Part shown: positions 56 through 55,864 of the stretch, in pieces
How positions within the stretch are numbered: position 1 is the stretch's first letter
Layout: each line of letters starts with the position of its first letter
Notes under the pieces: model-generated
Seen by the model: the letters and a program-made list of their open reading frames with translations, nothing else
What the model was told of the DNA's origin: nothing
The model's database searches: none
Position numbers and translations under genes: made by a program
Assembly: GCA_044225365.1 (NCBI GenBank)
Contig: JBGAIQ010000002.1
Coordinates: 116,451 to 180,450, forward strand
Direction: 5' to 3'
Origin: Planctomycetota bacterium
Lineage (GTDB): Bacteria > Planctomycetota > B15-G4 > JADJEK01
DNA length: 64,000 nt

Positions 56-3000
56 TCAGTCGATGTAGAGGAACTCGTTCAGATTCATGATCGTGAGCGC
101 GAGCGCGGCCATGGCGTGCTGTGCGCTGTCCACGCGCGGGAGCGCCGCCTCGATCGTCGTTTTGCCGGAGGACATTGCGAGTCGCTCGAGCGTGATCCCA
201 CTGCCGTAGGTCTTGATCCCGACGCGTCCGCTCCGCGTGGCCGGCGTTCCGCCGTCGTTTCCCTCGAGGGAGATCGGAGGCTGACCTTCCTGCGAGATCA
301 CGGCGTGCACCTTGGCGCCCGCGAGACTCACGACGAGCTCGACCGGAACGAGTGTGCGGATCGCCGCCGCTCGTCGCGCGAGTTCCGTCGCGACGCCGTT
401 GTCGTGCGACAGCAGTATGAGGGCGCCCGGCGAACTCGCGCTCGGCGGTTCGATGCGGACCTCGATCCCGGCAGCGACGTCGCCGTCCACCTTGCCGCGT
501 ACGAGCAACCCGCAGTACGGCGAGTCCTCGTGCATTTCGAAACGGGCGGCGACCTCGCCGTCGACGAGTTCGTGATCCTTCCACAGCGCGCACGGACCTT
601 CGAGGCGATCGACCTCGTACGTCACGTTGTAGTCGTTGCCGAATCGGCCCTTCAGCACTTCGAACGTGTCGGCCGGTGCGCGCAGGATGCGATCGCCCGC
701 GAGGATCGCGAGGAATCCGCGTTCGAGCCGCGGGGGGACGAGTGACTCGATCACGGTCGATGGCGCGCGCGTCGCGACGGCCGCCGTCTCACGCTCCACG
801 AAAGCTCGCGCCGCGGTGAGTTCGCTTGGAGTCGGCTTGCGCGAGAGAGCCCGTTCGAAGACGAGTTCGATCGCGCGGGACGTGTCGCCCTTCGCATCGG
901 CGAGCACGCGGGAGGCGAACGCTTCGGACTGGCGGCCCGCGAAGTCGCCATTCAAGAGTTGCAGCGCTTGCGTCGGGACGGTCGTCACCGCGCGTCGTCC
1001 TTCGGGGAGCGCGGAGTTCGGACAGTCGAAGGTCTCGAGCAGGGGCGTGAGCAGGTTGCGCTTCACGAACGCGTAGAGCGAGCGGCGCTGCGTCTCCGCC
1101 GCGGGCGAGATCCTCATTCCTTCGCCCGGCCGCGACAGTCCGGCGAGCGCTTCGCGGGGCAAGGGCTCGAAGAAGCTCGGGCCGCCGCGAGTCGTCACGA
1201 GACTGCCGCTCGCCGCGAGGATCGAATCGCGCAGCGTCTCCGCCTCGAGGCGATGGCGATTCTGGCGCCACAGCAGTTGATTGCCGGGATCGACGAGGCT
1301 CGCTCGCTTCGCGACGGCATCGTCGACGGTCGAATCCTGACGATACGTGGACGAGAGCAGGATCTCGCGATGCAGCCACTTCAGGCTCTCACCGTGCTTC
1401 ACGAACTCGCTCGCGAGATGATCGAGGAGTTCGGGATTCGTGGGGGGCGCGCCGGCCTTGCCGAAGTCGTTCGGCGTCGGGACGATTCCCTCGCCGAAAT
1501 GATGCTGCCACACGCGATTCACGATCACGCGGGCGGTGAGCGGATTCGAGGAGTTCGCGATCCACTCGGCGAGCACGCGGCGGCGACCGCTCGATTCGGC
1601 GTGCGCGGAGCGGGTGATCTTGGAGGGCATCGCCGCGTCGTCGCTCGGCGCGAGCGCCCGCGGGAAGTGCGGCGCGACCTCTTCAGCGGGTGACGAGGCC
1701 TGGCCGCGAACGAGCAGATGCGTGACGGGCGGGGGAGTCGTGTTCTCGCGGGCGCAGAGCGCCCAGTCGAGATGACCCTGGAACGACTCGCGAATCGTGA
1801 GCCGCTCGCGTTGGAGGCCGAGCAATTGGATCGCGCGAGGATGGTCCTTCGAATCGAGGAGATTGAGCGCGCGCTGTTCGTCGATGCCGCTCTTGACCGC
1901 ATCGATGATCTCGCGCTGTTTCGCGTTGCGGTCCTTCTCCGGGGTGTCCCACGCGTCCTTCAATCGCTTCGCCGTCTTCGCCCGCTCCTCGATCACGAGC
2001 GTCCGCGCTCGTTCGACGAGGTCGGCGGCCTCGCTCTCGATCGCTTTCTTGCGCTCCTCGCGTTCGGCATTCCACTTCTTCATCGCCGCGGGATCGGAGC
2101 TCAGCATCGCGAGCGTCGGCGAGTCGGGCGCGAATTTGCCATCGTCGTAGCGCCGGAGGTTGCGGAGGAACGCGAGCAGTCCGTAGTAGTCGGTCTGCGG
2201 GATCGGATCGAACTTGTGATCGTGACAACGCGCGCATCCGATCGTCGTCCCGAGGAAGCCTTCGCCGATCGTGCGCACCATGTCGTCGAGTTCGTCGAAC
2301 TCGGCTTGGTCCATGTCGTCCGGCTCGCTGTCCCACGGGCCAAGGCGGTAGATCCCGGTCGCCACGATCGACTCTTTCGTCACCGCGTCGAGTTCGTCGC
2401 CCGCGAGCTGCTCGAGCACGAAGCGATCCCACGGCTTGTCCTGATTGAACGAGTCGACGACGTAGTCGCGATACCGCCAGGCGAAGGGCTTCTCCTGATC
2501 GCGTTCGTACCCCGAGGTCTCGGCATACCGCACCACGTCGAGCCAATGCCGCGCCCAGCGCTCGCCGTACTCCGGTCGCGAGAGGAGATCGTCGACGAGG
2601 CGCGCGTAGGCGTCGGGCGCCGGATCCAGAACGAAGCGATCGATCTCCTCTGCCGAGGGCGGCAGACCGATGAGGTCGAAGTAGACGCGACGCGCGAGCG
2701 TCGCCTTTGCCGCCGGCTCTGCCAGCATGAGCCCCTTCGCTTCGAGCTTGGCGAGGACGAAGGCGTCGAGCGGCTTCACGACGCGATCTTCGGCCTTCAC
2801 GGTTGGAACGGCCGGCGCCACGACCGGGCGGTATGCCCACCATTCGCGGCCCTTCGCGATGTCGATCTCCGATTCGCTCGACGTGTTGGATGCGGTGTTC
2901 GAAGCGAGTGCCGTCGGCCACGGTGCGCCCAGTTCGATCCATTGTTCGATCACTGCGATCTCGTCGGCCGCGAGCTGCTGCTTCGGCGGCATCTCGAGCG

Positions 3001-3325
3001 ACTCGTCGGTCCACTTCAGCGCCTTCACGAGCAGGCTCTTCGCCGGTTCGAACGGGACGACGACCGCTCCGGAATCGCCACCCTTCTTCAGAGAATCGGC
3101 ATCGGCGAATCGCAATCCGCCCTTCGGCCGCGCGACGTTCGGGCCGTGACACTTGAAGCAATGCGTGTCGAGGAGTGGGAGCACGCTCTTCGTGAACAAG
3201 GCTTCGCCGGTGTCGTCCGTCGCGCGCGGGCCGCAAAGCGCGACCGATGCAACGCCCCCCGCGGCGAGAGCGAATGTCGAGAGGGCGCTCCGCGCGATGG
3301 CGGACCGAATCGAACGAGGGGGCAT
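56..3325 (-). CDS. Planctomycete-type PSCyt/PSD1 (DUF1549/DUF1553) cytochrome-c-domain protein
   Basis: There is a 1,130-aa ORF. Trimmed to the Met at 3325 it gives MPPRS followed by a hydrophobic signal peptide. A CFKCHGP motif (CxxCH heme-binding site) lies near the N-terminus. The length and composition match the family that is abundant in Planctomycetes. Confidence 0.8.
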   Translation of the reverse strand: MPPRSIRSAIARSALSTFALAAGGVASVALCGPRATDDTGEALFTKSVLPLLDTHCFKCHGPNVARPKGGLRFADADSLKKGGDSGAVVVPFEPAKSLLVKALKWTDESLEMPPKQQLAADEIAVIEQWIELGAPWPTALASNTASNTSSESEIDIAKGREWWAYRPVVAPAVPTVKAEDRVVKPLDAFVLAKLEAKGLMLAEPAAKATLARRVYFDLIGLPPSAEEIDRFVLDPAPDAYARLVDDLLSRPEYGERWARHWLDVVRYAETSGYERDQEKPFAWRYRDYVVDSFNQDKPWDRFVLEQLAGDELDAVTKESIVATGIYRLGPWDSEPDDMDQAEFDELDDMVRTIGEGFLGTTIGCARCHDHKFDPIPQTDYYGLLAFLRNLRRYDDGKFAPDSPTLAMLSSDPAAMKKWNAEREERKKAIESEAADLVERARTLVIEERAKTAKRLKDAWDTPEKDRNAKQREIIDAVKSGIDEQRALNLLDSKDHPRAIQLLGLQRERLTIRESFQGHLDWALCARENTTPPPVTHLLVRGQASSPAEEVAPHFPRALAPSDDAAMPSKITRSAHAESSGRRRVLAEWIANSSNPLTARVIVNRVWQHHFGEGIVPTPNDFGKAGAPPTNPELLDHLASEFVKHGESLKWLHREILLSSTYRQDSTVDDAVAKRASLVDPGNQLLWRQNRHRLEAETLRDSILAASGSLVTTRGGPSFFEPLPREALAGLSRPGEGMRISPAAETQRRSLYAFVKRNLLTPLLETFDCPNSALPEGRRAVTTVPTQALQLLNGDFAGRQSEAFASRVLADAKGDTSRAIELVFERALSRKPTPSELTAARAFVERETAAVATRAPSTVIESLVPPRLERGFLAILAGDRILRAPADTFEVLKGRFGNDYNVTYEVDRLEGPCALWKDHELVDGEVAARFEMHEDSPYCGLLVRGKVDGDVAAGIEVRIEPPSASSPGALILLSHDNGVATELARRAAAIRTLVPVELVVSLAGAKVHAVISQEGQPPISLEGNDGGTPATRSGRVGIKTYGSGITLERLAMSSGKTTIEAALPRVDSAQHAMAALALTIMNLNEFLYID

Positions 3326-3474
3326 GGATGGGAGCTTCACGAGTAAGGCGATGATAACTCGCGCCGCAATCTCCGGCAAAACCGCCCGGTCAGGATCCGT
3401 GGAGAAATCGAGCGAGCCGGTAGACTCCGTGGTCTCTCTCGACCGCATTTCGTGCGGGCGAACCGCCCGAGCCG

Positions 3475-4761
3475 ATGACCGTCACCCGACCCTTGACCCT
3501 GCCCACGCTTCCACCCTCGCTTCCATCCTCTTCGCTTCGAGTGGCGCTCCACCGAGCGTTCTTCCTCGCGAGTTTGGTCGTTGCGTGCGGAGGATGCGAG
3601 CGCTCGCAGGAGGAGTGGTACTCCGACCTTCGCGCGGACGATGCCTACGATCGACGCCTCGCCGTCGTCGCGCTCGCCCAGGGCGGGGCGCTCGGCGTGC
3701 GCGAAGCCGCGGGCGTGCTCGCGGCGAAGCGCGATCACGACAAGTTGGTCGCCATCTCAGCGGGGCGAGAGTGTCGCGACTACGCCCGCCGCGAGGCCTC
3801 CGTCTTCGTGAACGTCGTCCTCGCGACGGATGCCGAACTCGAAGGACGCGCGATCCCGGCGCGCGCGATCCGACTCGACGCTGCGGAGATCGTGATCGAG
3901 GAAGGGACGAAGACGGAATCGCAGGCGCTCTACGAAGCGATCGTCCGCAAGCCGCCGATCCTCGGCGCGGAGATCTTGGAGATCGCATCGAACACCTTCG
4001 CGCGGATGGGTCGACGCAGCCTTCTCGTGCTCGAACAGGCGATCGCTGCGCAACGTCCCGTAGAGCAGTTGCTCGTGTTCCGAGTGCTCGCGAGTTCACT
4101 GGGGCTCGATGACGCCGCGGAACAGCAAGCCGCTCTCGACTTCGTGAAGGCGCACGAGATCGCCTCGCAGTTCCCCAAGCTCTTCATCGCGCAGTCGTTC
4201 GCGAATCCCTCGCTCGCGAGCACGATCGGCATCGAGGCCTGCGGCGAATACGCGGTCGCGGTGCGGCCGGGTTACGTCGCGCGACTCGTCTCCGACTTCG
4301 CGAGCGGCGGGCCCGGGGGAAGCGACGTCTCGTTACGAGCGGGGGAATCGCTCGCGAGGCTCGGACCGCTCGCGGCGGCCTGCATCGCACCGCTGCTCGA
4401 GGACTCGAATCCGGCGATCGTGCGCGCCGCGATCCGCACCTTCGCTCGTCTCGAATCGGGGCCGGCGCGACTCGCCGCACTCGCCTCGCTCGACCCGCGC
4501 GCCGAGTCGGACAAGGAGGCCTTCCGCAGTCTGGCATCGGCGATGAAGGAAGCGGACGTCGACGAACTCTTGAAACTCAGCGGGGACCGCAACGCCGAGT
4601 CGAGGATGCGCGCCGCGATGATCTTCGCATCGCTCGCAATGGGAGCATTCGGCGGACGGCTCGAAGTCGCGATCGACCGGCTGGCGCATGATCCGAATGG
4701 CGAGGTCGCCGCGATCGCCCACACGGCGCCGAAGCGAGATCGCAGCAATGGCGGGAAGTGA
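3475..4761 (+). CDS. HEAT/armadillo-type repeat lipoprotein (hypothetical)
   Basis: The ORF has an ATG at 3475. A hydrophobic stretch ends in VVACGGC, which is lipobox-like. The rest consists of alpha-helical repeats rich in A, L and R. The third codon position is strongly GC-biased. Confidence 0.65.
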   Translation: MTVTRPLTLPTLPPSLPSSSLRVALHRAFFLASLVVACGGCERSQEEWYSDLRADDAYDRRLAVVALAQGGALGVREAAGVLAAKRDHDKLVAISAGRECRDYARREASVFVNVVLATDAELEGRAIPARAIRLDAAEIVIEEGTKTESQALYEAIVRKPPILGAEILEIASNTFARMGRRSLLVLEQAIAAQRPVEQLLVFRVLASSLGLDDAAEQQAALDFVKAHEIASQFPKLFIAQSFANPSLASTIGIEACGEYAVAVRPGYVARLVSDFASGGPGGSDVSLRAGESLARLGPLAAACIAPLLEDSNPAIVRAAIRTFARLESGPARLAALASLDPRAESDKEAFRSLASAMKEADVDELLKLSGDRNAESRMRAAMIFASLAMGAFGGRLEVAIDRLAHDPNGEVAAIAHTAPKRDRSNGGK

Positions 4762-14937: not shown

Positions 14938-15912
14938 ATGCGCACCACCCTTCGCAAACTCTCGATCGCCGCCATCGCGGCAACCTTGCTCGCCGGGTCG
15001 GCCCTGGCCGGCGACTCCTGGCTCACGAGCTACAAGGACGCGCTCGCCAAGTCGAAGGAAACGAAATTGCCGGTGATGGCGGACTTCACCGGGAGCGACT
15101 GGTGCCACTGGTGCATCTCGCTGAAGAAGGAAGTCTTCGACACCGACGAGTTCAAGAAGTGGGCCGCGGACCACGTGATCCTGCTCGAACTGGACTTCCC
15201 GCAGGGCAAGAAGCTGAGCAAGGAGCTCACGAAGCAGAACGAAGACCTGAAGGCGAAATTCAACATCGAGGGCTTTCCGACGCTCGTCTTCCTGAACGGC
15301 GACGGCAAGGAACTCGGTCGCGGCGGCTACGTCGAAGGCGGTCCCAAGCCGTGGATCGAGGCGGCGGAGAAAGCCATGAAGGGCGAGCCGAAGGACGCCG
15401 CGAAGGCGCCCGAGGCGAAGGCCGGCGAGGACAAGGGCCCGTGGATCGAGAGCTGGGACGATGCCGTCAAGCGCTCGAAGAAGGAAGGCAAGATGATCCT
15501 TGCCGACTTCACGGGCAGCGACTGGTGCCCCTGGTGCATCAAGCTCCACGACGAGGTGTTCAACACGCCAGAGTTCAAATCGTGGGCGAGCGCCAACGTC
15601 GTGCTGCTGCTCCTCGACTTCCCGCATCACGAACAGGCCGATTCGATCAAGAAGCAGAACGAGAAACTGCAATCGAAGTACGGGATCCAGGGCTTCCCGA
15701 CCGTCCTCTTCCTCGACGCCGCGGGCAAGAAGAAGGGACAGATGGGTTATGAAGCGGGCGGTCCGAAGCCGTGGATCGAGAAGGCCGCGAAGATCGCAGG
15801 CAACAAGAAGCCGGCGCCGGCTCCCAAAGACGCGCCCGCGAAGGATTCGAAGGACGGCGAGAAGACCGACCCGAAGGCGGGCGGCACCGATCAGAAGCCC
15901 ACGAAGAACTGA
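14938..15912 (+). CDS. Secreted tandem thioredoxin-like (Thioredoxin_7/DUF255-like) protein with two CxxC motifs
   Basis: The signal peptide is MRTTLRKLSIAAIAATLLAGSALA. There are two repeats of LPVMADFTGSDWCHWC / MILADFTGSDWCPWC, each followed by a thioredoxin-fold helix. The C-terminus is rich in K, P and A. Confidence 0.8.
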   Translation: MRTTLRKLSIAAIAATLLAGSALAGDSWLTSYKDALAKSKETKLPVMADFTGSDWCHWCISLKKEVFDTDEFKKWAADHVILLELDFPQGKKLSKELTKQNEDLKAKFNIEGFPTLVFLNGDGKELGRGGYVEGGPKPWIEAAEKAMKGEPKDAAKAPEAKAGEDKGPWIESWDDAVKRSKKEGKMILADFTGSDWCPWCIKLHDEVFNTPEFKSWASANVVLLLLDFPHHEQADSIKKQNEKLQSKYGIQGFPTVLFLDAAGKKKGQMGYEAGGPKPWIEKAAKIAGNKKPAPAPKDAPAKDSKDGEKTDPKAGGTDQKPTKN

Positions 15913-28200: not shown

Positions 28201-28613
28201 TCTGTCCGACGCTCGGCAATGCGGCCTGGCTGTGGGCAACGGGCGACGACCGCAAGGCGATCACGCGTCCCGTGCTCCGCGAATTGCGCAAGCAACAATC
28301 CCCGGCGCAATCTCAGAACGCGGTTCGTTACTTCTTCGATCCGCTCGACGATCCGCTCGAATCCTGCTACGTCGCACTCCGCATCCGTCGATCGACGCCG
28401 AACGCTCAGATCGCAGGAGTGGTGTGGGGGATCGACGATCGGGCGATCGGTCGGATGAACTTCCAGACTGTCGGCGATGGCCCCCAGGACTACCTCGTTC
28501 GCGTGAGCAGCCAGTTCAGTTGGTCGCGAAGGCGCTGCAACTGGATCTCCGTCGTCACGACGGGCGAGAACGAGATCGAAGTCCTCGATGCCAAGATCCT
28601 CAAGGGCGACTGA
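25263..28613 (+). CDS. Large polytopic membrane protein (about 1,116 aa) with a C-terminal soluble domain. It is a possible GT-C-type glycosyltransferase.
   Basis: The N-terminal two-thirds contain many hydrophobic helices. The C-terminal roughly 400 aa are hydrophilic. It is the first gene of a glycan-type operon. The start is uncertain; alternatives are at 25311 and 25368. Confidence 0.65.
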   Translation: MLRIAFVPHSRCRSRRMSVESLSRPARIREECVARMRSAFSSFAFTALFVAVSIVVLRAEAADFWLSSFKNRVVSTPTVDGIDIGARTALFTSSVALFVGAFVLVLALLELGRRAVSDSIWRAIEALSIAGSSLWLAHAYAIDTEPTIVLVIAVQLAILSIGLFDQWVLRRGAHPDTAAYLATLGIAAAGVVILVTDLVDFVARRDVPWAQWHIGVAMVALHVLVRAFSWRRDAERGLRALNAVGGGLLLFASIPFISFLRDEIYLTLNNHGVLTVEPRTVEYVLIGFLALFVVVRIFRDLRRQDPPSLTARVGRFGLPLFLFGIASIAYYFPLHPLPDKLFEAANPGLFVQQFFDFGRIPYLETFNAHGFSDSFWSFVFPLLQGNRDEVTGFYEFLNRAIGAVLVYWLLRRATGNPYLACFAVLFAPFYVDVFPVYCELAIASLFVLERVLAKPSAIRIAAFAMYTVGVFHWRLDMGAANLIASAGVVAVTWLTSSRSRPRWRDLLVGGTACGFVYGVVFLGLAWYRGVDPLHVVQSLQHIVSSSQGFGQAVAREFGPDVRWHLFVLPIAVLSIAAISIFLRATTQSPTRERAFLMLFLAYGAFYYFANFQRGLVRHTWIEPGNVYVLSFGFVVLALSPYLRASGSERSRWIAFLGIATVLAGSFGLQGPIPASAAKYKNLWQKTIAHRIEWPHVQFAPFLIDRSPSSPSLEKHHYGAARRFIASNLTPDQTFLDLTMSPMLYVVLHRRSPHYLNHLYLAHDEWLQKNEIPEFEENDVPVVFTWMEEDLAKFDGEVANQHNFGDTVHNSVRQWVFHEWLNRHYEPWCVVQRWQVWRRKNWLAPTHPFGVDAAELAKAQPTTRGGGVSLRSVDGTKPVAPLEPGTVTYLEIDGNATKAAQIDVTLTFDDAAGQRGELRRRLDVTPGSAPRYWTLPFDLEAKSLHSVDVTSASGFEFSSVELETVVALDYSTVLDRARLRICPTLGNAAWLWATGDDRKAITRPVLRELRKQQSPAQSQNAVRYFFDPLDDPLESCYVALRIRRSTPNAQIAGVVWGIDDRAIGRMNFQTVGDGPQDYLVRVSSQFSWSRRRCNWISVVTTGENEIEVLDAKILKGD

Positions 28614-38101: not shown

Positions 38102-39340
38102 ATGATCCTGCAGCTCCTGAAGCCGCTTTTCGGACTCTTCGTTGCCGCGACGCCGAGCCTTGCGCCGAATCATCTGCTCGTGACTTCGTTCACGAGCGGA
38201 AGCCTGCTCGACATCGCTCCCGGAAACACCATCTCCGGTTCGTTCGATCTCGCCGCGCTCGGAATCGCGCCGATGGGCGTCGCTGTCGGCCCGAACGGCA
38301 AGGTCTACGTCTCGGACAACAACGGCAATCGCGTGGTCGTACTCGACGCGAGCGGCGCGATCGTCTCCGAGATCGGCGCCGGCTCGGGTCTCGTCACTCC
38401 CCGCGGTCTCGCGTTCGGACCCGATGGCGAGTTGTACGTCAGCACTGCCGCGGGGATCCCGCTCTACGTGTTCAACGCGGCGGGCGAGAAGGTCGCGGAG
38501 TACGGGAAGTCCGAAGGCGTGCTGCGAGCCGAGGGACTCGAGGTGGGCATCGATGGCCACATCTTCGTCGCGTCGCAGCGCGATGACGACATCTACGAGT
38601 TCGACAGTTCGGGAGTGCTCGTTCGTCAGATCGGCAAGGACGCGGGCCTCGACGATCCGATCGGGATCGCCTTTGGCCGCGACGGGCTGATGTACGTGGC
38701 GTCCGAGAATCACAACGAGATCGTGGTGTTCGGACCGAGCGGCGATGTGGTGGGGAGCTTCGGTAAGGCCGAAGGAGTGGAGATGCCGATCGGACTCACG
38801 ATCGGCCCCGACAATCGCGTGTACGTCGCGTGTTTCGACCAGAATCTGGTTCACGTCTTCGACGTGAACGGCGCGGTCGCGACGAGTCACACGACGATCG
38901 TGGTTCCCGGCAATCCGGCGTTCCTCGCATTCGTACCGTTCCGACTTCCCATCGAGCTCGACGGCGATCTCGCGTTCACGGGAGCGTTCGAGAAGCACCA
39001 CATCGAAACGGCGACGCTCGTCTACTCGCCGGGCGTCGGCCCGGCTTCGATCGTATTGAAGGACGTCGATACCTCGACGGATCTCGCCACCACGTTCAGC
39101 GCGATTCAGCTCGTCTTCCACGGTCAGCACGCGTCGGTCGATGCGACGACGACGAAGCGTCTCTTCATGGGCACGCAGATTCCTCGCCTCGCGATGAATC
39201 GGGGCGCGGCCTCGCTCTCCCTGCGCGTGACGACGCAGCAAGGGGACTTCGGTTTCCCGACCGTGAAGAAGGTCGAAGGCACGCTCGAGCGCGCGCGCGC
39301 CGGGACGATCTTCCGGGGCGATATCCGGCTCAAGGGATGA
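38102..39340 (+). CDS. NHL-repeat beta-propeller protein (secreted)
   Basis: The ATG at 38102 begins MILQLLKPLFGLFVAATPSLA. NHL-like units are repeated: GVAVGPNGKVYVSDNNGNRVVVLD, PRGLAFGPDGELYVS, PIGIAFGRDGLMYVA and PIGLTIGPDNRVYVA. Confidence 0.7.
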   Translation: MILQLLKPLFGLFVAATPSLAPNHLLVTSFTSGSLLDIAPGNTISGSFDLAALGIAPMGVAVGPNGKVYVSDNNGNRVVVLDASGAIVSEIGAGSGLVTPRGLAFGPDGELYVSTAAGIPLYVFNAAGEKVAEYGKSEGVLRAEGLEVGIDGHIFVASQRDDDIYEFDSSGVLVRQIGKDAGLDDPIGIAFGRDGLMYVASENHNEIVVFGPSGDVVGSFGKAEGVEMPIGLTIGPDNRVYVACFDQNLVHVFDVNGAVATSHTTIVVPGNPAFLAFVPFRLPIELDGDLAFTGAFEKHHIETATLVYSPGVGPASIVLKDVDTSTDLATTFSAIQLVFHGQHASVDATTTKRLFMGTQIPRLAMNRGAASLSLRVTTQQGDFGFPTVKKVEGTLERARAGTIFRGDIRLKG

Positions 39341-48180: not shown

Positions 48181-48249
48181 AATACCCGGTAACGGGCAGT
48201 GTGCCTCGTGCGTAGCATTGCTCTTTTCGTGGACGTCCGAAGGAGAAAT

Positions 48250-49170
48250 ATGAGACCGCTCTCGTACCTGGCGGGACTCTCGGCACTGGTGATCACGGGC
48301 CTCGCGCTCGCGGCGCCGCCGAAGCCGAAGATCAAGCCTACGGTGGAGTTCGCCCACACGTGGGAAGCCGCCGTCGCCGAAGCGAAGATGCTGAACCTTC
48401 CGCTCGTGGTGCACAATCACGGGTTCTACTGAGGCCCGTGCTGGGGCATGCATTCTGCCGTGATGCAGAATGACGATTACATCAAGTTCGCGAACGACAA
48501 CACGGTCGAGGTCCTGGCCCTTGGCAGCCTCGACACCGCCGTACAGAAGAACGAAAAGGCCGATCAGGCCAAGATCGCGCGCTACAAGGCGACCGTCAAC
48601 GGCAAGGAAGTCGAGCTGATGGTCGAGTGGCCGAATCTCACGTACGAGGAGATCATCGCCCTCAACCAGAGTCCGGCAGGCCAGTACAACAAGTCCGGAG
48701 GCATCCCCTACACGTCGATCGTGAATCCGTGGGATCTGAAGGAGATGTGGAAGCAGCTCGGCGGAACCGGCGCCTCCACGATCATCGCCGCGGCGACCGA
48801 CGCCAAGAAGCAGCTCGAGAAGGAGCACGGCAAGGGTCTCTCCCGCAAGGATCTTCGCGCGTACAACAAGGCGGACGCCGAAGCGACCAAGCTCACGAAC
48901 GACGGTGAGTTCAGCAAGGCGATCCAGGCCTACGATCCATTCAGCAAGTCCTCGGCGCAATGGCCTCAGAACATGAAGACCCGCCTCGATGCTGCGCGCA
49001 ACGCGGTCATCGAAGCGGCGACTTCCAAGCTCGAAGAGATCGAGTCGAAGGCCGGCACCGATCCGGTCGGCGCCAAGAAGGATCTCGACAAGCTGATGTT
49101 GAAGCTCGGCAAGACCGGGCTCGAGCCCAAGGCGAAGGAACTCGCCCAGAAGCTCGCGACGGGCGGCTGA
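48250..49170 (+). CDS. Candidate selenoprotein: a secreted thioredoxin-fold (Thioredoxin_7-like) protein with a U-G-P-C redox motif and an in-frame TGA at 48430..48432
   Basis: The track ORFs 48199..48432 and 48448..49170 are in the same frame, separated only by a TGA. AGGAGA (SD) precedes the ATG at 48250, which is followed by signal peptide MRPLSYLAGLSALVITGLALAA. The read-through translation is ...LPLVVHNHGFY-U-GPCWGMHSAVMQNDDYIKFANDNTVEVLAL.... This aligns with LPVMADFTGSDWCHWC...KKEVFDTDEFKKWAADHVILLEL of the CxxC paralogue at 14938..15912, with Sec in place of the first Cys. Confidence 0.55.
48451..48472 (+). promoter_or_regulatory. bSECIS-like hairpin downstream of the in-frame UGA
   Basis: CATTCTGC-CGTGAT-GCAGAATG is a perfect 8-bp stem with a 6-nt loop containing GU. 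The stem begins 19 nt and the loop 27 nt after the UGA. This falls within the 16-37-nt window described for bacterial SECIS elements. Confidence 0.45.
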
Positions 49171-49209
49171 CGACTCGAGTTCGACTCGATCGAGGCGCCT
49201 CCTCGCCAG

Positions 49210-49255
49210 CGACACGACCCGACGTGCGACAACGCACGTCGGGTCGTGTCGTTCC
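49210..49255 (+). terminator. Strong GC-rich hairpin (19-bp perfect stem, ACAA loop) 40 nt after the stop at 49170. It is terminator-like.
   Basis: The left arm is CGACACGACCCGACGTGCG, the loop is ACAA, the right arm is CGCACGTCGGGTCGTGTCG, and it is followed by TTCC. There is no U-tract, which is common in high-GC genomes. Confidence 0.5.
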
Positions 49256-49635: not shown

Positions 49636-50367
49636 ATGGTGACCTTTGCCCTGATCACGCTCCTCGTCACGTTCCTAGGCGGATGCCTGCCGCTCGTGAA
49701 GGACTGGAGCCATCGGCAACTCCACGCCGTACTCGCGCTCGCGACGGGCGTCTTCCTCGGCGCCGTATTCCTCCACTTACTCCCCGAGATCAGCGCGAAC
49801 GAGAGCGGCCAGCGGGCGATCTCGCCGCGCACCTTGTGGTTGCTGACGTTGGTCTCGACGCTCGCCGTGTACCTGCTCGAAGCGCTCGTCTTCCGGTCGC
49901 ACGACCACGACGAGGCGCACCGCCATCGGGCGGTCGGATACTCGGCGCTCGTCGGGCTCTCCGTCCATTCGTTCACCGAGGGCATTGCGTTCTGCGTGTT
50001 CGCAGCGGACGTGCGCAGCGCGACGCCGTTCTTCCTCTCGACCCTCGGCCACAAGCTGCTCGACGGCTTCTCGCTCGCGTCGGTGTTTCGACTCGGGGAC
50101 ATGGGCCGGAAACAGGTGATCTTCTGGATGATCGCGTTCGCATCGCTCACACCGGTCGGCATGCTGCTGGGAGAGCGACTCCTTCCCTGCCTCTCACCGA
50201 CGGCGTTTGCCGTCGTGTCGGCGCTCGCCGCCGGTACATTCCTGTTCGTGAGCCTCTGTGAACTGCTGCCGGAAGTCTTCCATCACCGCGAGGACAGCCT
50301 CGTCAAGGTCGGTCTTCTGCTGCTCGGTATCGGCTCCTTCATGGCCCTGCACGAGGTGAGCGGATGA
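49636..50367 (+). CDS. ZIP-family divalent metal transporter (ZupT-like)
   Basis: The ATG at 49636 begins a 243-aa product with 8 hydrophobic helices. A His-rich loop (HDHDEAHRH) is present. HSFTEGIA and HKLLDGF match ZIP metal-binding helices. Confidence 0.75.
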   Translation: MVTFALITLLVTFLGGCLPLVKDWSHRQLHAVLALATGVFLGAVFLHLLPEISANESGQRAISPRTLWLLTLVSTLAVYLLEALVFRSHDHDEAHRHRAVGYSALVGLSVHSFTEGIAFCVFAADVRSATPFFLSTLGHKLLDGFSLASVFRLGDMGRKQVIFWMIAFASLTPVGMLLGERLLPCLSPTAFAVVSALAAGTFLFVSLCELLPEVFHHREDSLVKVGLLLLGIGSFMALHEVSG

Positions 50368-52538
50368 TCCAGTTCTTCCAGGACTGGGGCAGCGCGGTGA
50401 TCTCGATGATCCTGGAAGCGGGACCTTTCCTGCTGCTCGGACTCTTCGTCGCCGGCCTGCTGAAGGCATTGCTGCCAGCCGCGGCGATCACGAAGCACCT
50501 CGGTGGGAACGACCTTCGCTCGGTCGCTCTCGCGACCCTGATCGGCGCGCCGCTGCCCCTCTGTTCGTGCTCGGTGATCCCGACGGCGGTCGAGCTCCGC
50601 AAGAAGGGCGCGAGCAAGGGCGCCACGACCGCATTCCTCATCTCCACGCCGGAGACGGGGGTCGACTCGATCGGTGTCACGTGGGCGCTGATCGATCCGC
50701 TGATGACGCTCGCGCGGCCACTCGCGGCGATCGTGACCGCGTTCGGTGCCGGCGCGATCGTGAACTTCCTCGAACGCCGCGGGTGGCTGAAGGACGTGTC
50801 GACGGATTCCGTGGCTCCGGCGTCGGATTGTTGCGACGACACGGCGAGCTGCGCGGCGCCCGTCCTCGACGAGCATGGCCACGGCGACGCCCACGGACAC
50901 GACCACGGTCACGACCATGAGCACGCGCGCGCGGAGACGGCTGCGCCGGCGCGGCGCTCGGTGCTCGGCGTGCTTCGCGAAGCCGTCGGCTATGGCCTCG
51001 GTCCGCTGCTCGAGGACCTGACCCCGTGGTTCGTCCTCGGATTCCTGCTCTCCGGACTCATCACGGTCCTCGTGCCGGAGAACTTCTTCGGCGACGTGAT
51101 CCCTCCGGGCCTTTGGGCGATGCTGCTGATGCTCGCTCTCTCGGTGCCGATGTACATCTGCGCGAGCGCGAGCACTCCGGTGGCGGCCGCGCTGATGGCG
51201 AAAGGGCTCGATCCGGGCGCCGCACTCGTCTTCATGCTGGCGGGCCCCGCCACGAACATCGCGACGATCCTCGTCGTCGGTCGCTTCCTCGGATGGCGCT
51301 CGCTCGCCGCCTATCTCGCTTCGATCGTCGCCGGATCGCTGCTGTTCGGGACGTTGCTCGATTTCGCCTACAAGGTCTTCTCGATCGATGTCACGATCCG
51401 GAGCCAGGCGACGGAATCGTCGCAGTTCTCGTACTTCACGATCGCGTGCGGTGTGGTGCTCGTGCTCGGCGTGCTCCGACACGCCTGGCGGACGTCGCTC
51501 CTCTTCACGTTCGAGAGCTGGCTCGCCCGGATCGGTCTCGTTCCTTCTCGAAGCTTCGCTCGCAGCCTCTTCGTCGGTGCGGTCGTCGTCGTTTGGGGCT
51601 CCACGAGCTACTCGGTCGTGCTCCCTGGGCAGACTGGATTCGTCCTGCGCTGGGGTCGCGTCGTGGATCGCCTGGAAGGTCCCGCGACCGTTTGGCACCT
51701 GCCGTATCCGATCAGCCGCTTCGAGGCCGTTTCGACCTCTTCGATCGAGCGCGGAAAGGTCGGCCTCGAGGAGGGGAGCGCCGCGCCGCCGCCGCTGTCG
51801 GCGACGGGGGAGTTCGAGCCGCAGACCGATGACGTCGAATGCGTGACGAGCGACGAGAAGCTGCTGATCGTCACCTACGCGATCCACTACCGGATCGTCG
51901 ACCCGTACGTCGCGCGCTTCCAGGTGCAGGACCTGAAGCGGGTCGTCGAGACCTGTGCGGCGTCGTCGCTCCGGCGCATGGTCGCGCATCATTCGATGGA
52001 TGAACATCTCGTCGATCGACGCGAGCCGCTCGAACTCGAAGCCAAGGGTTACCTCTCCGAGCAGCTCGAAAAGATCGGTTGCGGCGTCGAGGTCCTGGCG
52101 GTGACGTTCGAGTACATGCACGCTCCGCCGCAGGTGCACTATGCGTATCGCGACGTCGCGAGCTCGCTCGAGGACAAGGAGACGTCGATCAAGAACGGCG
52201 TCACTTACAAGCTCGAGCAGATGGCGCAGGCGCGCGCGGACGCCGAGCAGATCGAGCAGAAGGCGCTGGGTGATGGCGCACTCGCGCGTGCCGAGGCGAC
52301 TCGAGTCGTCGCGGGGTTCGAGGCTCTCGCGCCGCTCCATCAGCAGTACGGATCGACCTTCGCTTCGATGCTCGTGATCGAGTCGTGGAAGAAGTCGATC
52401 AAGAACCTGAACGGGGTCGTTCCGCTCGCGCCGAACGTGGCAGTGACGATCGTTCAAAAAGGCTCTGGCGCATCTGCCGCCGTGCAGAGCGATGGCGACG
52501 GCAAGGGGTCCGCGACGCCCTCCGGAAAGGACGACTGA
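50364..52538 (+). CDS. Fusion of a DUF318-type permease (SO_0444-like metal transporter with CSC and His-rich motifs) to a C-terminal SPFH/HflK domain
   Basis: There is an ATGA overlap with the ZIP gene. The N-terminal roughly 400 aa form a permease with LPLCSCSVIP, CCDD and the HGHGDAHGHDHGHDHEH loop. The C-terminal roughly 320 aa have a Band-7/HflK-like fold (VLPGQTGFVLRWGRVV...). Confidence 0.7.
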   Translation: MIQFFQDWGSAVISMILEAGPFLLLGLFVAGLLKALLPAAAITKHLGGNDLRSVALATLIGAPLPLCSCSVIPTAVELRKKGASKGATTAFLISTPETGVDSIGVTWALIDPLMTLARPLAAIVTAFGAGAIVNFLERRGWLKDVSTDSVAPASDCCDDTASCAAPVLDEHGHGDAHGHDHGHDHEHARAETAAPARRSVLGVLREAVGYGLGPLLEDLTPWFVLGFLLSGLITVLVPENFFGDVIPPGLWAMLLMLALSVPMYICASASTPVAAALMAKGLDPGAALVFMLAGPATNIATILVVGRFLGWRSLAAYLASIVAGSLLFGTLLDFAYKVFSIDVTIRSQATESSQFSYFTIACGVVLVLGVLRHAWRTSLLFTFESWLARIGLVPSRSFARSLFVGAVVVVWGSTSYSVVLPGQTGFVLRWGRVVDRLEGPATVWHLPYPISRFEAVSTSSIERGKVGLEEGSAAPPPLSATGEFEPQTDDVECVTSDEKLLIVTYAIHYRIVDPYVARFQVQDLKRVVETCAASSLRRMVAHHSMDEHLVDRREPLELEAKGYLSEQLEKIGCGVEVLAVTFEYMHAPPQVHYAYRDVASSLEDKETSIKNGVTYKLEQMAQARADAEQIEQKALGDGALARAEATRVVAGFEALAPLHQQYGSTFASMLVIESWKKSIKNLNGVVPLAPNVAVTIVQKGSGASAAVQSDGDGKGSATPSGKDD

Positions 52539-53440
52539 TGAAGAGATTCATGCAATGGATCGGCATCCTCGCCGCGATTACGGCGCTGCTCGCTGTTTCG
52601 ACCTTCCAGGTCGGCGAGGGCGAAGTGGCGATCGTGATGCGCTTCGGCGAGGTCCGACCCGAACCCGCGGGACCGGGGCTCCACTTCAAGCTCCCGACGC
52701 CGATCGACACGGTGATGCGCGTCGACACGCGAACCCACATCCTCGATCCCAAGTCCGAGGAGTACCTGACGAAGGACAAGAAGAACATCGTCGTCGACGC
52801 CTTCATGGCATGGCGCGTCTCGAACGTGCAGCAGTACGCGCTGACGTTCCGCTCGTCGCTCGAGGCCGAGACCCGGCTCAATGACGTGCTGCGTTCGGTG
52901 CTGAACGATGTTCTGCCGTCCCAGGAGTTCGCGGCTCTCATCTCTACGAAGGAGGGCGGGCCGTCGCTGAAAGACGTGAACGACGATCTCACGAAGCGCA
53001 CGCACGATCGTGCGATCGACCGTTTCGGTATCGACGTCAAACTCGCCGCGATCAAACGCATCAACTTCCCGGGTCAGAACAAGAATTCGGTGTACTCGCG
53101 GATGGAGGCGGATCGCAAGTCGCTCGCCCGCGGCTTCCGCTCGGAAGGCGAAGAGCAATACACGAAGATCCAATCGCAGACCGACCGCGAGGCCGCGGAG
53201 CTGCGTTCCGACGCGATGCGCAAAGCCGCGACGATCAAGGCGGAGACCGACGCCGAGGTGAAGCGCACTTACGCCGAGGCCGCGGCGAAGGACCCGGAGT
53301 TGTGGAATCTGCTCCAGCAGCTCGACCTCGGCGCAGCGGCCTTCGGCGACAAGACGACGATCGTGCTGCCGAGCGATTCGCCACTGCTCCTCCCGTTCGA
53401 AGCGCCCAAGGCGTCGAAACCCGGCAAGACGGGAGACTGA
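52538..53440 (+). CDS. hflC: HflC-like SPFH protein (FtsH protease modulator)
   Basis: There is an ATGA overlap with the previous gene. It has one N-terminal TM helix, then VGEGEVAIVMRFGEV...LHFKLP, which is typical of HflC, and a coiled-coil C-terminus. Confidence 0.75.
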   Translation: MKRFMQWIGILAAITALLAVSTFQVGEGEVAIVMRFGEVRPEPAGPGLHFKLPTPIDTVMRVDTRTHILDPKSEEYLTKDKKNIVVDAFMAWRVSNVQQYALTFRSSLEAETRLNDVLRSVLNDVLPSQEFAALISTKEGGPSLKDVNDDLTKRTHDRAIDRFGIDVKLAAIKRINFPGQNKNSVYSRMEADRKSLARGFRSEGEEQYTKIQSQTDREAAELRSDAMRKAATIKAETDAEVKRTYAEAAAKDPELWNLLQQLDLGAAAFGDKTTIVLPSDSPLLLPFEAPKASKPGKTGD

Positions 53441-53444
53441 GCCG

Positions 53445-54434
53445 ATGGCGGAGCAGAACGTGGTCGAAAGAACGAATACGGGCGCGGCCATCCTCCGAGG
53501 AGTGACGATGCTGTTCGCGCTGGCGTTCGGCTCCGCCGCGTTGTGGTCCTCGACCTATGTCGTGAAGCCGAACGAAGCCGGCGTGATCCTCGCGTTCGGC
53601 AAGGTCACGAGTGTCGCCCCGCCCGGCATGCACATGACGCTGCCGTGGCCGTTCGGCGACATGATCCGAGTGAACACGAGTTCCGTCGACCGCATCTCCG
53701 TCGGATTCAGGATCCTCGACCGCGAGAGGGGTCTGCAGCCGACCGAAGACATGGTGCAGTGGCTGACCGGCGACACCAACATCGTCGAGCTGCAGGCCGT
53801 CGTGCTCTACACGATCCAGGACCCGAGGAAGTTCCTGTTCGAGATCAGCGATTCCGGCGAAGAGGGGTGGCTGCCGCTTCCCGAGCCGCAGCGCACCGTC
53901 GTGCGTCGCGCGGCCGACGCGGTGCTCACTCGTCGCATCGCGAGGATGTCGATCGACGAACTGCTCCTCGAAGGCAAGGTGGAGCTGCAGACCTCCGCGG
54001 TCGACGAGATCCAGTCGATGCTCGACATGCTCGACGCCGGCATCCACGTCTCCGCGGTGCAGATCCAATCCGTCGCTCCGCCGAAGATCGTGATCGAGAC
54101 GTTCAACGACGTGCAGAGCGCTCGCTCCGATCGCGAGCGCCGCATCTCCGAGGCCGACGGCTACAAGCTCGACACGATCCCGAAAGCGCGCGGCATCGCG
54201 AACTCGCTCGAGCAGGAAGCCGAGACCTATCGCACCGAGCAACTGAATCGCGCGAAGGGCGTGCTCGCGAACTTCGACAAGCTGCGCGACGAGGTGAGCC
54301 GCAATCGCGACGTCGTCATGCGCCAGCTCTGGATCGACACGATGCAGAAGATCCTGAAGAAGGCGCGGATCATCCAGGTGCCCGCGGGCGCGCCGCAATC
54401 GCCGGCACAGCGCCTGTTCATCGAGGCGTCCTGA
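53445..54434 (+). CDS. hflK: HflK-like SPFH protein
   Basis: It has one TM helix, then VVKPNEAGVILAFGKV..PG.H...PWP, the HflK-type N-terminus of the SPFH domain. Confidence 0.7.
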   Translation: MAEQNVVERTNTGAAILRGVTMLFALAFGSAALWSSTYVVKPNEAGVILAFGKVTSVAPPGMHMTLPWPFGDMIRVNTSSVDRISVGFRILDRERGLQPTEDMVQWLTGDTNIVELQAVVLYTIQDPRKFLFEISDSGEEGWLPLPEPQRTVVRRAADAVLTRRIARMSIDELLLEGKVELQTSAVDEIQSMLDMLDAGIHVSAVQIQSVAPPKIVIETFNDVQSARSDRERRISEADGYKLDTIPKARGIANSLEQEAETYRTEQLNRAKGVLANFDKLRDEVSRNRDVVMRQLWIDTMQKILKKARIIQVPAGAPQSPAQRLFIEAS

Positions 54435-54816: not shown

Positions 54817-54928
54817 GCCGAATCTCAGGGACGGTTCATGATCGAGTCGAAGCCGCGGTCGCGCCGGGATTGAGCGCTCGGCACGAACAAGTTACCCTGG
54901 TCCCTTCGTTTCTGCTCGGGAGCAAAGC

Positions 54929-55864
54929 ATGTCGGACGCGCGCAACGTGATCATCATCGGTTCGGGTCCCGCGGGCTACACGGCGGGGATCTACGCCGCT
55001 CGCGCCAATTTGAAGCCGCTGATGTTCGAAGGCATCCAGGCCGGCGGGCAGCTCATGATCACGAACGACGTGGAGAACTACCCGGGGTTCCCCGAGGGCA
55101 TCAAGGGCCCCGAGTTGATGGACCTGTTCAAGAAACAGGCCGTTCGATTCGGCACCGAGACGATGACGCAGAACGTCGAGGTCGTCGACTTCAGCAAGCG
55201 ACCGTTCAAGGTGACGTCCGAGGGCAAGGACTACTTCGGCCACACGATCATCGTGGCGACCGGAGCGACGGCGAAGCTCATCGGTCTCGAATCCGAACGC
55301 CAGCTCATGGGCTCGGGCGTATCCGCGTGCGCGACGTGCGATGGCTTCTTCTTCAAGAACAAGGATGTCTGCATCGTCGGCGGTGGCGATACCGCGATGG
55401 AGGAAGCGACGTTCCTCACCCGCTACGCGAGCAAGGTGCACGTCATCCATCGGCGCGACACATTGCGCGCCTCGAAGATCATGCAGCAGCGCGCGAAGGA
55501 CAACCCCAAGATCGACTTCATCTGGGACACCGAAGTGATCGAAGTCCTCGATCCCAAGAAGAAGCAGATCGAGGCGCTGCGCCTCAAGAACCTCAAGACC
55601 GGCGTCGAGACCGTGCGTCCGACGCAGGGCTTGTTCGTCGCGATCGGTCACCAGCCGAACACCGAGATCTTCAAGGGTCAGCTCGAGCTCAACGACGTCG
55701 GATACGTGATCGTGAAGAAGGGAACGATGACGAGCAAGGACGGCATCTTCGCCGCGGGCGACGTCGCCGACCCCGTGTGGCGCCAGGCCGTCACGGCCGC
55801 GGGCACGGGCTGCGCTGCCGCGATCGACGCGGAGCGTTGGCTCGAGGCGCACGGCAGCCACTAG
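54929..55864 (+). CDS. trxB: Thioredoxin-disulfide reductase
   Basis: Signatures present are GSGPAGYTA (FAD), CATCDG (redox-active CxxC) and GGGDTAME (NADPH). Confidence 0.9.
   Translation: MSDARNVIIIGSGPAGYTAGIYAARANLKPLMFEGIQAGGQLMITNDVENYPGFPEGIKGPELMDLFKKQAVRFGTETMTQNVEVVDFSKRPFKVTSEGKDYFGHTIIVATGATAKLIGLESERQLMGSGVSACATCDGFFFKNKDVCIVGGGDTAMEEATFLTRYASKVHVIHRRDTLRASKIMQQRAKDNPKIDFIWDTEVIEVLDPKKKQIEALRLKNLKTGVETVRPTQGLFVAIGHQPNTEIFKGQLELNDVGYVIVKKGTMTSKDGIFAAGDVADPVWRQAVTAAGTGCAAAIDAERWLEAHGSH

Follow-up and report, generated by a model that had tools for sequence, protein, structure and literature searches.

We analysed a 64,000-nt stretch of DNA from a Planctomycetota bacterium (contig JBGAIQ010000002.1), hereafter the window, in whose numbering all positions are given. 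The window has 65% G+C and contains a PSCyt1/PSCyt2/PSD1 gene at 56-3481. At 48199-48432 and 48448-49170 lie two open reading frames (ORFs) in a common frame, whose sole intervening stop is the TGA at 48430-48432, exactly as an earlier note made from the sequence alone had described. The read-through product is MRPLSYLAGLSALVITGLALAAPPKPK...LPLVVHNHGFY-*-GPCWGMHSAVMQNDDYIKF..., with the motif HGFY*GPCWGMH around the stop. The evidence presented here indicates, with a probability that we put at about 0.88, that 48250-49170 is one gene for an exported thioredoxin-fold selenoprotein, in which UGA codon 61 is recoded as selenocysteine (Sec) by way of a hairpin at 48451-48472 acting as a bacterial selenocysteine insertion sequence (bSECIS). 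The GTG start at 48199 implied by the earlier note gives way to ATG 48250, which is the likelier start, preceded as it is by AAGGAG at 48240-48245. The parts of the gene are as follows.

48240..48245, + strand: Shine-Dalgarno-like AAGGAG, 4 nt 5′ of ATG 48250, read from the sequence
48250..49170, + strand: predicted selenoprotein coding sequence (CDS), 306 codons and a terminal TGA, Sec at codon 61, from translation and homologue alignment
48250..48315, + strand: predicted Sec-type signal peptide MRPLSYLAGLSALVITGLALAA with an ALA-A cleavage-like site, inferred from sequence
48430..48432, + strand: in-frame UGA, predicted selenocysteine codon U61; the column has Cys in 65-66 homologue clusters and TGA in 18 further genes, all from independent assemblies
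48430..48441, + strand: redox motif U-G-P-C, at the N-terminus of the first thioredoxin-fold helix in the model of Cys homologue P0009
48451..48472, + strand: bSECIS-like hairpin, stem CAUUCUGC/GCAGAAUG and loop CGUGAU, from constraint check and conservation
48706..48708, + strand: codon of the invariant Pro153 in G-I-P-Y-T, predicted cis-proline loop, from alignments A1, A3 and A4
48772..49167 (start approximate), + strand: C-terminal all-helical domain with a TPR/alpha-solenoid-like look

Full-length Cys homologues cover 89-99% of this CDS, and tblastn alignments in loci L001-L008 continue across the in-frame stop. A similar basic and hydrophobic N-terminal segment opens all full-length homologues and all upstream fragments.

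When the read-through protein, with C in place of U, was used as query, 112 homologue clusters were recovered, which fall into two length classes. In the 65-66 full-length clusters (287-341 aa), the alignment runs from the signal peptide and a Cys occupies the UGA column (HGFYCGPCWGMH), within a motif HxHGF[YF]-C-[GP]P-C-WGMH that is CGPC in 44 clusters and CPPC in 21. The 46 short clusters (226-243 aa) begin just past the motif, for example with MHSAVMQN or VLQNKKY. For this short class the DNA of 19 distinct genes was read, from GTDB species representatives and from JGI, ENA and Logan assemblies (locus labels L001-L021): the window gene (= L009), L001 at 3981, L003-L006, L008, L010, L011, L012 (two genes), L013, L014 (= L015), L016, L017 (two genes), L018, L019 and L020. 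All 19 have TGA exactly at the Cys column, and all 19 keep the upstream frame, with a signal peptide and ...TWEAAVxEAKLLNVPIVVHSHGFY. Both flanks of the TGA are conserved in all loci (upstream ...EAKLLNVPIVVHSHGFY, downstream GPCWGMH...), with synonymous variation present. The motif variants are UGPC, UPPC and UPGC among Sec forms, and CGPC and CPPC among Cys forms. The earlier note had placed the UGA at the first-Cys position of a CxxC motif and expected orthologues to carry Cys or a Sec codon there with the downstream frame conserved; the Cys in that column of 65-66 clusters and the TGA in 19 of 19 genes agree with both statements.

When 1.84 billion 50%-identity representatives were searched exhaustively with a profile, 287 relatives emerged. 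Among the best 150 of these are 49 truncated forms (≥200 aa), 12 canonical full-length Cys forms and 7 free-standing N-terminal fragments that end exactly at ...HSHGF[YFK], so that, among the best 150 of 287 relatives, the TGA form is the commoner state by sequence diversity. A rough neighbour-joining tree with Fitch parsimony gives at least 7 Sec/Cys switches. One contig of a metagenome-assembled genome (MAG), L001, carries a Sec copy (3981) and a Cys copy (4961) in tandem, and tandem Sec-form duplicates occur on two metagenomic contigs, at L012:8867-10687 and L017:8880-10696; the first copy is UPPC and the second UGPC or UPPC, with a class-B hairpin (described below) in every copy. The family is limited to Planctomycetota as far as sampled; a metagenome scan yielded two loci only. 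GenBank labels its members hypothetical; MBI4880254.1 is such an entry for a Cys form and MSR75686.1 one for a truncated Sec form, and a separate ORF of about 60 aa is sometimes annotated beside the hypothetical protein of about 230 aa. That standard annotation would split the gene and miss the redox centre is thus what the public records show: the gene callers of every source do so.

A same-genome Cys paralogue at 14938-15912 had been offered as further support. Its CxxC does align in register, but it is a remote relative (BLASTP E = 0.015, 23% identity). This gene (+ strand) encodes a two-domain DsbH-like disulfide reductase, which matches the DsbH model NF043050 at 253 bits in two stretches and has Thioredoxin_7 and Thioredoxin_2 domains; it is related to the selenoprotein at the superfamily level only. 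The paralogue argument is weak and is superseded by the Cys orthologues of other genomes.

The hairpin in the window is an inverted repeat, CATTCTGC / CGTGAT / GCAGAATG, at 48451-48458 / 48459-48464 / 48465-48472. Its first base is the 19th nt past the TGA and its first loop base lies 26 nt past it; the stem is 8 bp, the 6-nt loop CGUGAU has G at position 2 followed by U, and the predicted folding energy is -9.5 kcal/mol. Rfam gave no match, either at the gathering threshold over the whole window or at E ≤ 10 over 48380-48540, an expected result, since Rfam is not known to hold a generic bacterial SECIS model. The published bSECIS consensus has a loop of 3-9 nt on a stem of 4-16 bp, ΔG ≤ -7.5 kcal/mol, a G within the first two nucleotides of the loop, with G or U usually next, and a UGA-to-loop spacing of 16-37 nt (PMC13188914). 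The window hairpin lies within all four of these constraints, and the 8-bp hairpin that the earlier note had reported, starting 19 nt past the UGA with bSECIS geometry, is present as described. A smaller hairpin right after the UGA (GGCC...GGGG) was discarded, the Gly, Pro and Trp codons of G-P-C-W-G being inherently complementary.

Across the family, the TGA forms carry one of two hairpin designs. Class A comprises 12 TGA lineages with protein identity down to about 40%, in which UUCUGC-CGUG[A/U]U-GCAGAA is kept base for base and the six core pairs are invariant (12/12 lineages). Codons +7 to +12 of class A read CAT TCT GCC GTG [A/T]TG CAG in every lineage. In the window's genes, TCT accounts for 3.5% of Ser codons and CAT for 34% of His codons; outside the hairpin, class A genes write His as CAC in 10-11 of 12 lineages and Ser as AGC. 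The Cys form at L021 encodes the same peptide, HSAVM, with CAC AGC GCC GTC ATG and has no hairpin. Class B comprises 7 further TGA genes with the hairpin GCAC[G/C]-G[G/U][U/G]C-[C/G]GUGC, whose loop lies 22 nt past the UGA, at nearly the class A site. Its five core pairs are paired in 7/7 genes, with a compensatory pair that is G:C in five genes and C:G in two and that changes the encoded residues from G-S to R-A or R-S. The commonest class B loop, GGUC, is the apical loop of the Escherichia coli fdhF SECIS; the fdhF sequence used here was verified against fdhF of 5,419 E. coli genomes. No compliant hairpin of either design was present in the four Cys-form genes read (0/4). The hairpin is thus conserved and foldable in the TGA-form orthologues, in two designs, as the earlier note had required of it.

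The hairpin also appears to leave a mark on the protein. Residue +12 past Sec (CAG, 48466-48468 in the window) is Gln in 34/34 Sec forms and variable in Cys forms, in most of which it is a third cysteine (VMCN). Hairpin-region octapeptides number 10 variants among the 34 Sec forms vs. 32 among 65 Cys forms. The Gln may be there because the hairpin requires CAG, or it may mark a functional trade-off of Sec vs. an extra Cys. Together, the pair of hairpin designs, the enforced rare codons and the reduced set of peptides show how protein sequence is constrained by a SECIS inside a coding region, and how one SECIS can give way to another in evolution.

To place the active site in a fold, we used an AlphaFold model (mdecde8aa39f0) of the Cys homologue P0009, built from an 81-sequence alignment (predicted local distance difference test score (pLDDT) 93.7, predicted template modelling score (pTM) 0.85). 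The model consists of a disordered signal peptide, whose segment has low pLDDT, a thioredoxin fold at residues 30-165 and an all-helical domain at 168-294. A central β-sheet with flanking helices is arranged in thioredoxin topology, and strand 49-55 is followed by helix 59-69, which starts at the CGPC motif; GPC contains the thioredoxin dipeptide. Foldseek best matches are 3f9u, DsbH (2ju5) and DsbD-gamma, with E values of 2e-6 to 1e-3. Pro153 of G-I-P-Y-T is invariant in alignments A1, A3 and A4, and we take it to correspond to the cis-Pro loop of thioredoxins, by comparison with the G-I-P-T cis-Pro motif of E. coli thioredoxin; Pro153 is thus predicted to be the cis-proline loop of the fold. 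Carried over to the window protein, the model puts U at the first CxxC position of a thioredoxin fold.

Existing family models give little purchase on this protein. Pfam Thioredoxin_7 (PF13899) reached 15.6 bits (E = 0.018), below its gathering threshold of 27 bits, and none of the 112 homologues has a precomputed Pfam assignment (112/112). The DsbH model NF043050 (cut-off 190 bits) had no match at E ≤ 10 in the window protein and three homologues. The only NCBIfam hit (June 2026) was the DsbD-like part of TsoB (NF045694), at 13-17 bits vs. a cut-off of 805, and no match came from any curated selenoprotein model listed in PMC13188914, such as NF047660 (HUIPC thioredoxin-like), NF045500 (GOS_C), NF040730 (SaoT) and NF041199 (Trx7/PDZ). 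The redox centre is invisible in annotation, and no Pfam or NCBIfam model would rescue the Sec forms.

UGA keeps its ordinary role as a stop codon in this organism, since TGA ends 30 of the window's 35 genes; reassignment of UGA (genetic codes 4 and 25) is thereby ruled out. Evidence on Sec use in the lineage comes from relatives. The closest syntenic relative, L013, carries a second TGA-split gene at 2964-3515 (- strand), ...NGCFY-TGA-LQSHLADL..., which is called as ORFs of 81 and 72 aa and matches the AhpD-like ‘peroxidase-related enzyme’ model TIGR01926 at 150 bits vs. a cut-off of 81.8. TIGR01926 AhpD-like proteins are a catalogued CxxU selenoprotein family (PMC13188914), and Planctomycetes with complete selA/selB/selD sets have been documented (PMC4807772). 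A counterpart of the L013 AhpD-like gene was sought as a second selenoprotein in the window and was not found (tblastn E > 4). Other in-frame TGAs with coding-like flanks in the window were considered and set aside, those at 39338 and 43124 as ordinary gene junctions and that at 3759 as antisense; the same-frame junctions at 28611 (TGA) and 58820 (TAG) are ordinary gene ends. Apart from these points, one Sec-form contig carries a molybdopterin oxidoreductase with Molybdop_Fe4S4, Molybdopterin and Molydop_binding domains (L017:1-2321).

Several observations weigh against a selenoprotein at this locus or blunt the evidence for one. No selA, selB, selD or tRNA-Sec gene lies in the 64-kb window or the fetched flanks: ARAGORN detected neither a tRNA nor a tRNA-Sec across the window and 20 loci, and none of about 30 window ORFs scanned with Pfam proved to encode SelA, SelB or SelD. 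The only other record that holds the window sequence is a 6 kb contig of a Logan assembly (L009). That the short-class genes always have TGA is weakly informative, as TGA makes up about 86% of ordinary stops in the window. The window hairpin alone is not beyond chance, with a fold z-score of only -1.1 vs. shuffles, and 4.1% of codon positions in window genes precede a model-compliant perfect-stem hairpin (≤ -7.5 kcal/mol). Covariation is nil in class A, where the six core pairs never vary, and class B offers one compensatory pair in seven sequences, a covariation score reached by 14 of 500 shuffles. The modelled sequence is that of a Cys homologue, 50% identical to the window protein, for which it serves as a stand-in. 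Function is read from fold neighbours only, and the gene neighbourhood is not conserved across the family, so it points to no partner. What decides is the position of the TGA with its conserved flanks. The weight of the hairpin evidence lies in its conservation in orthologues, not in the window hairpin alone, and within that evidence in TGA-form-specific conservation and the swap of one design for another, not in covariation statistics.

The TGA could be a true stop, leaving an exported peptide of about 60 aa and a 240-aa cytoplasmic protein that begins at ATG 48448 by independent initiation or termination-reinitiation, with the hairpin serving translational coupling. Every source's gene callers do split the gene here, and ATG 48448 lies just 5 codons past the stop. 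However, no Shine-Dalgarno-like motif precedes this ATG, the split would fall inside the thioredoxin fold, with strand 1 on one side and the active-site helix on the other, and the signal peptide would be left on the small fragment only. The Met at +6 is not conserved in Sec forms (GAH in L006, GQH in L016, SLH in L017, SQH in L018), and callers therefore resort to GTG or later starts in such genes. The 65-66 homologue clusters that are continuous proteins with Cys at the column also argue against two products, and we regard this arrangement as very improbable. Slightly less probable still is a pseudogene, in which a Cys codon (TGC/TGT) has mutated to TGA, or an assembly or sequencing error. 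A single base separates TGC from TGA and the source of the window is possibly uncultured, but the identical sequence occurs in the independent Logan assembly L009, and the same TGA stands in 18 further genes from different assemblies, whose proteins are 36-67% identical. The sequence on either side of it is intact and conserved, with synonymous variation elsewhere in the gene, and truncated forms outnumber full-length ones among the best 150 of the 287 relatives (50%-identity representatives).

The UGA could also be read through without Sec, by near-cognate Cys or Trp insertion or by low-level read-through after loss of the Sec machinery, the hairpin then acting as a pausing or read-through stimulator. 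The lack of Sec machinery in the window and fetched flanks fits this explanation, as does the C that follows UGA in the UPPC variants; UGA followed by C is a leaky context. It leaves unexplained, however, why a SelB-type hairpin is restricted to TGA forms. The hairpin fits the SelB-type model: its small apical loop is correctly spaced from the UGA and has G then U/G at its start, and the class B loop GGUC is that of fdhF. Homologues have Cys in this column, the nucleophilic first position of CxxC and the classic Sec site, and the related contig L013 has a second gene of a catalogued selenoprotein family. We consider read-through without Sec improbable, though less so than the two explanations above. 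Standard criteria in the field for new bacterial selenoproteins are Sec/Cys pairs with conserved flanks, TGA homologues elsewhere, Cys homologues and a downstream bSECIS-like structure (PMC12013277), and the window gene and its homologues show every one of these.

From these observations we infer how the gene would work. UGA codon 61 would be recoded as selenocysteine during translation, with the hairpin at 48451-48472, inside the CDS, recruiting SelB-GTP-Sec-tRNASec to the ribosome stalled at the UGA by the standard bSECIS mechanism. The product would be exported to the periplasm via the Sec pathway, its signal peptide being cleaved near ALA/A. Its N-terminal half would form a thioredoxin fold of the Thioredoxin_7 / DsbH / DsbD-gamma type, in which U61 would attack and C64 resolve, so that the U-G-P-C centre would alternate between a selenol/thiol and a selenenylsulfide state. 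Most probably the protein acts as a periplasmic disulfide (or sulfenate/peroxide-linked) reductase, and a membrane electron transporter of the DsbD/CcdA type probably re-reduces it. Binding of substrates or partners may be the task of the helical TPR-like domain at the C-terminus.

Among bacterial selenoproteins the UxxC thioredoxin-fold proteins form the largest class, with tabulated types that include selenoprotein thioredoxin (PF00085), thiol:disulfide interchange protein (PF13098) and DsbA-like, DsbG-like and thiol-disulfide isomerase-like proteins (PMC13188914). Like these, the window family has Sec at the first CxxC position of a thioredoxin fold, many Cys homologues, an in-CDS bSECIS hairpin just 3′ of the UGA and genes truncated by callers. 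Unlike them, it lies outside their models, has an extra helical C-terminal domain of about 130 aa and is found in Planctomycetota only, as sampled. The hairpin resembles the E. coli fdhF bSECIS in being an in-ORF stem-loop that follows closely on the UGA and whose small apical loop has G then U/G near its start, and class B hairpins share the GGUC loop. The window's class A hairpin differs from it in the loop CGUGAU and in the distance from the UGA (26 nt vs. 18 in fdhF), and no bulged U was identified in the class A hairpin in this comparison.

DsbH is a reducing periplasmic oxidoreductase that resembles thioredoxin and DsbD-gamma (PMC5193440). DsbH of Chlamydia pneumoniae (2ju5) and the DsbD-gamma / Thioredoxin_7 group (3f9u, 1uc7, 1vrs) have 12-18% identity to the window family; 3f9u, among the best Foldseek matches, is an exported cytochrome c biogenesis-related DsbD-C-like domain. 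DsbH differs from the family in its CMWC motif and has neither Sec nor the helical domain, and the DsbH model NF043050 matches the window gene at 14938-15912, not the selenoprotein. CnoX/YbbN (3qou, 3qdn) likewise has an N-terminal thioredoxin fold followed by a helical-repeat domain, and the Foldseek alignment spans the whole length. However, the TM-score is only 0.27-0.29, CnoX is cytoplasmic and has an SxxC motif, and no evidence of common descent was found between the helical domains of CnoX and of the window family.

The window protein is best described as a UxxC thioredoxin-fold selenoprotein of an apparently uncatalogued family, as judged by Pfam and NCBIfam models, BSepDB not having been compared. 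A wider proposal, to which we would give about even odds, is that this is an uncatalogued, Planctomycetota-restricted family of exported selenoproteins (DsbH/Thioredoxin_7-like with a TPR-like domain) in which Sec is the majority and possibly ancestral state, at least about 7 exchanges between Sec and Cys have taken place, and two bSECIS designs of unrelated structure have replaced each other. If true, the family would be a natural system for bSECIS turnover and would include the first selenium-dependent DsbH-like periplasmic reductase. It would also imply Sec decoding in many Planctomycetota MAGs (Sec forms occur in SIAO01, CAZOLL01, CAMDTN01, JBLINQ01, CADEGH01 and CAZBOK01) and add an exported, envelope-located selenoprotein to a phylum with a little-described selenoproteome. 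The known picture of bacterial Sec decoding would stay as it is, UxxC thioredoxin-fold proteins being the commonest kind of selenoprotein.

Synteny around the gene, in the order fumC, CBU_0592, selenoprotein gene, ZIP and SO_0444-like, is kept only in the closest relatives, L013 and L014. In the window, the ZIP transporter gene at 49636-50367 lies 5′ of an SO_0444-family Cu/Zn efflux transporter gene at 50364-52538 (+ strand), two genes downstream of the selenoprotein gene (NF033936, 392 bits vs. a cut-off of 300). The latter is fused to an HflK/Band_7-like C-terminal half and is a Cys form (‘LPLCSCS’); the SO_0444 family has UxC selenoprotein members (PMC13188914). HflC-like and HflK-like genes follow at 52538-54434. 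About 5.7 kb downstream of the selenoprotein gene, 54842-55864 (+ strand) encodes a thioredoxin-disulfide reductase (TIGR01292, 401 bits), which is also present in the syntenic locus L014; a direct link of this reductase to an exported protein is unlikely, because thioredoxin-disulfide reductase is cytoplasmic. At L021:4104-4622 an AhpC-TSA/Redoxin (peroxiredoxin) gene stands directly after the Cys-form gene. This neighbour, not seen at other loci, could be a hint of a partner.

One further feature lies 3′ of the gene.

49208..49253, + strand: perfect 21-bp hairpin with a 4-nt loop, possible terminator or repeat element, 38 nt past the stop codon

This hairpin has no U-tract, and a consensus terminator scan made no call there. 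The 95-nt segment that holds it folds at -57.6 kcal/mol (z = -5.9).

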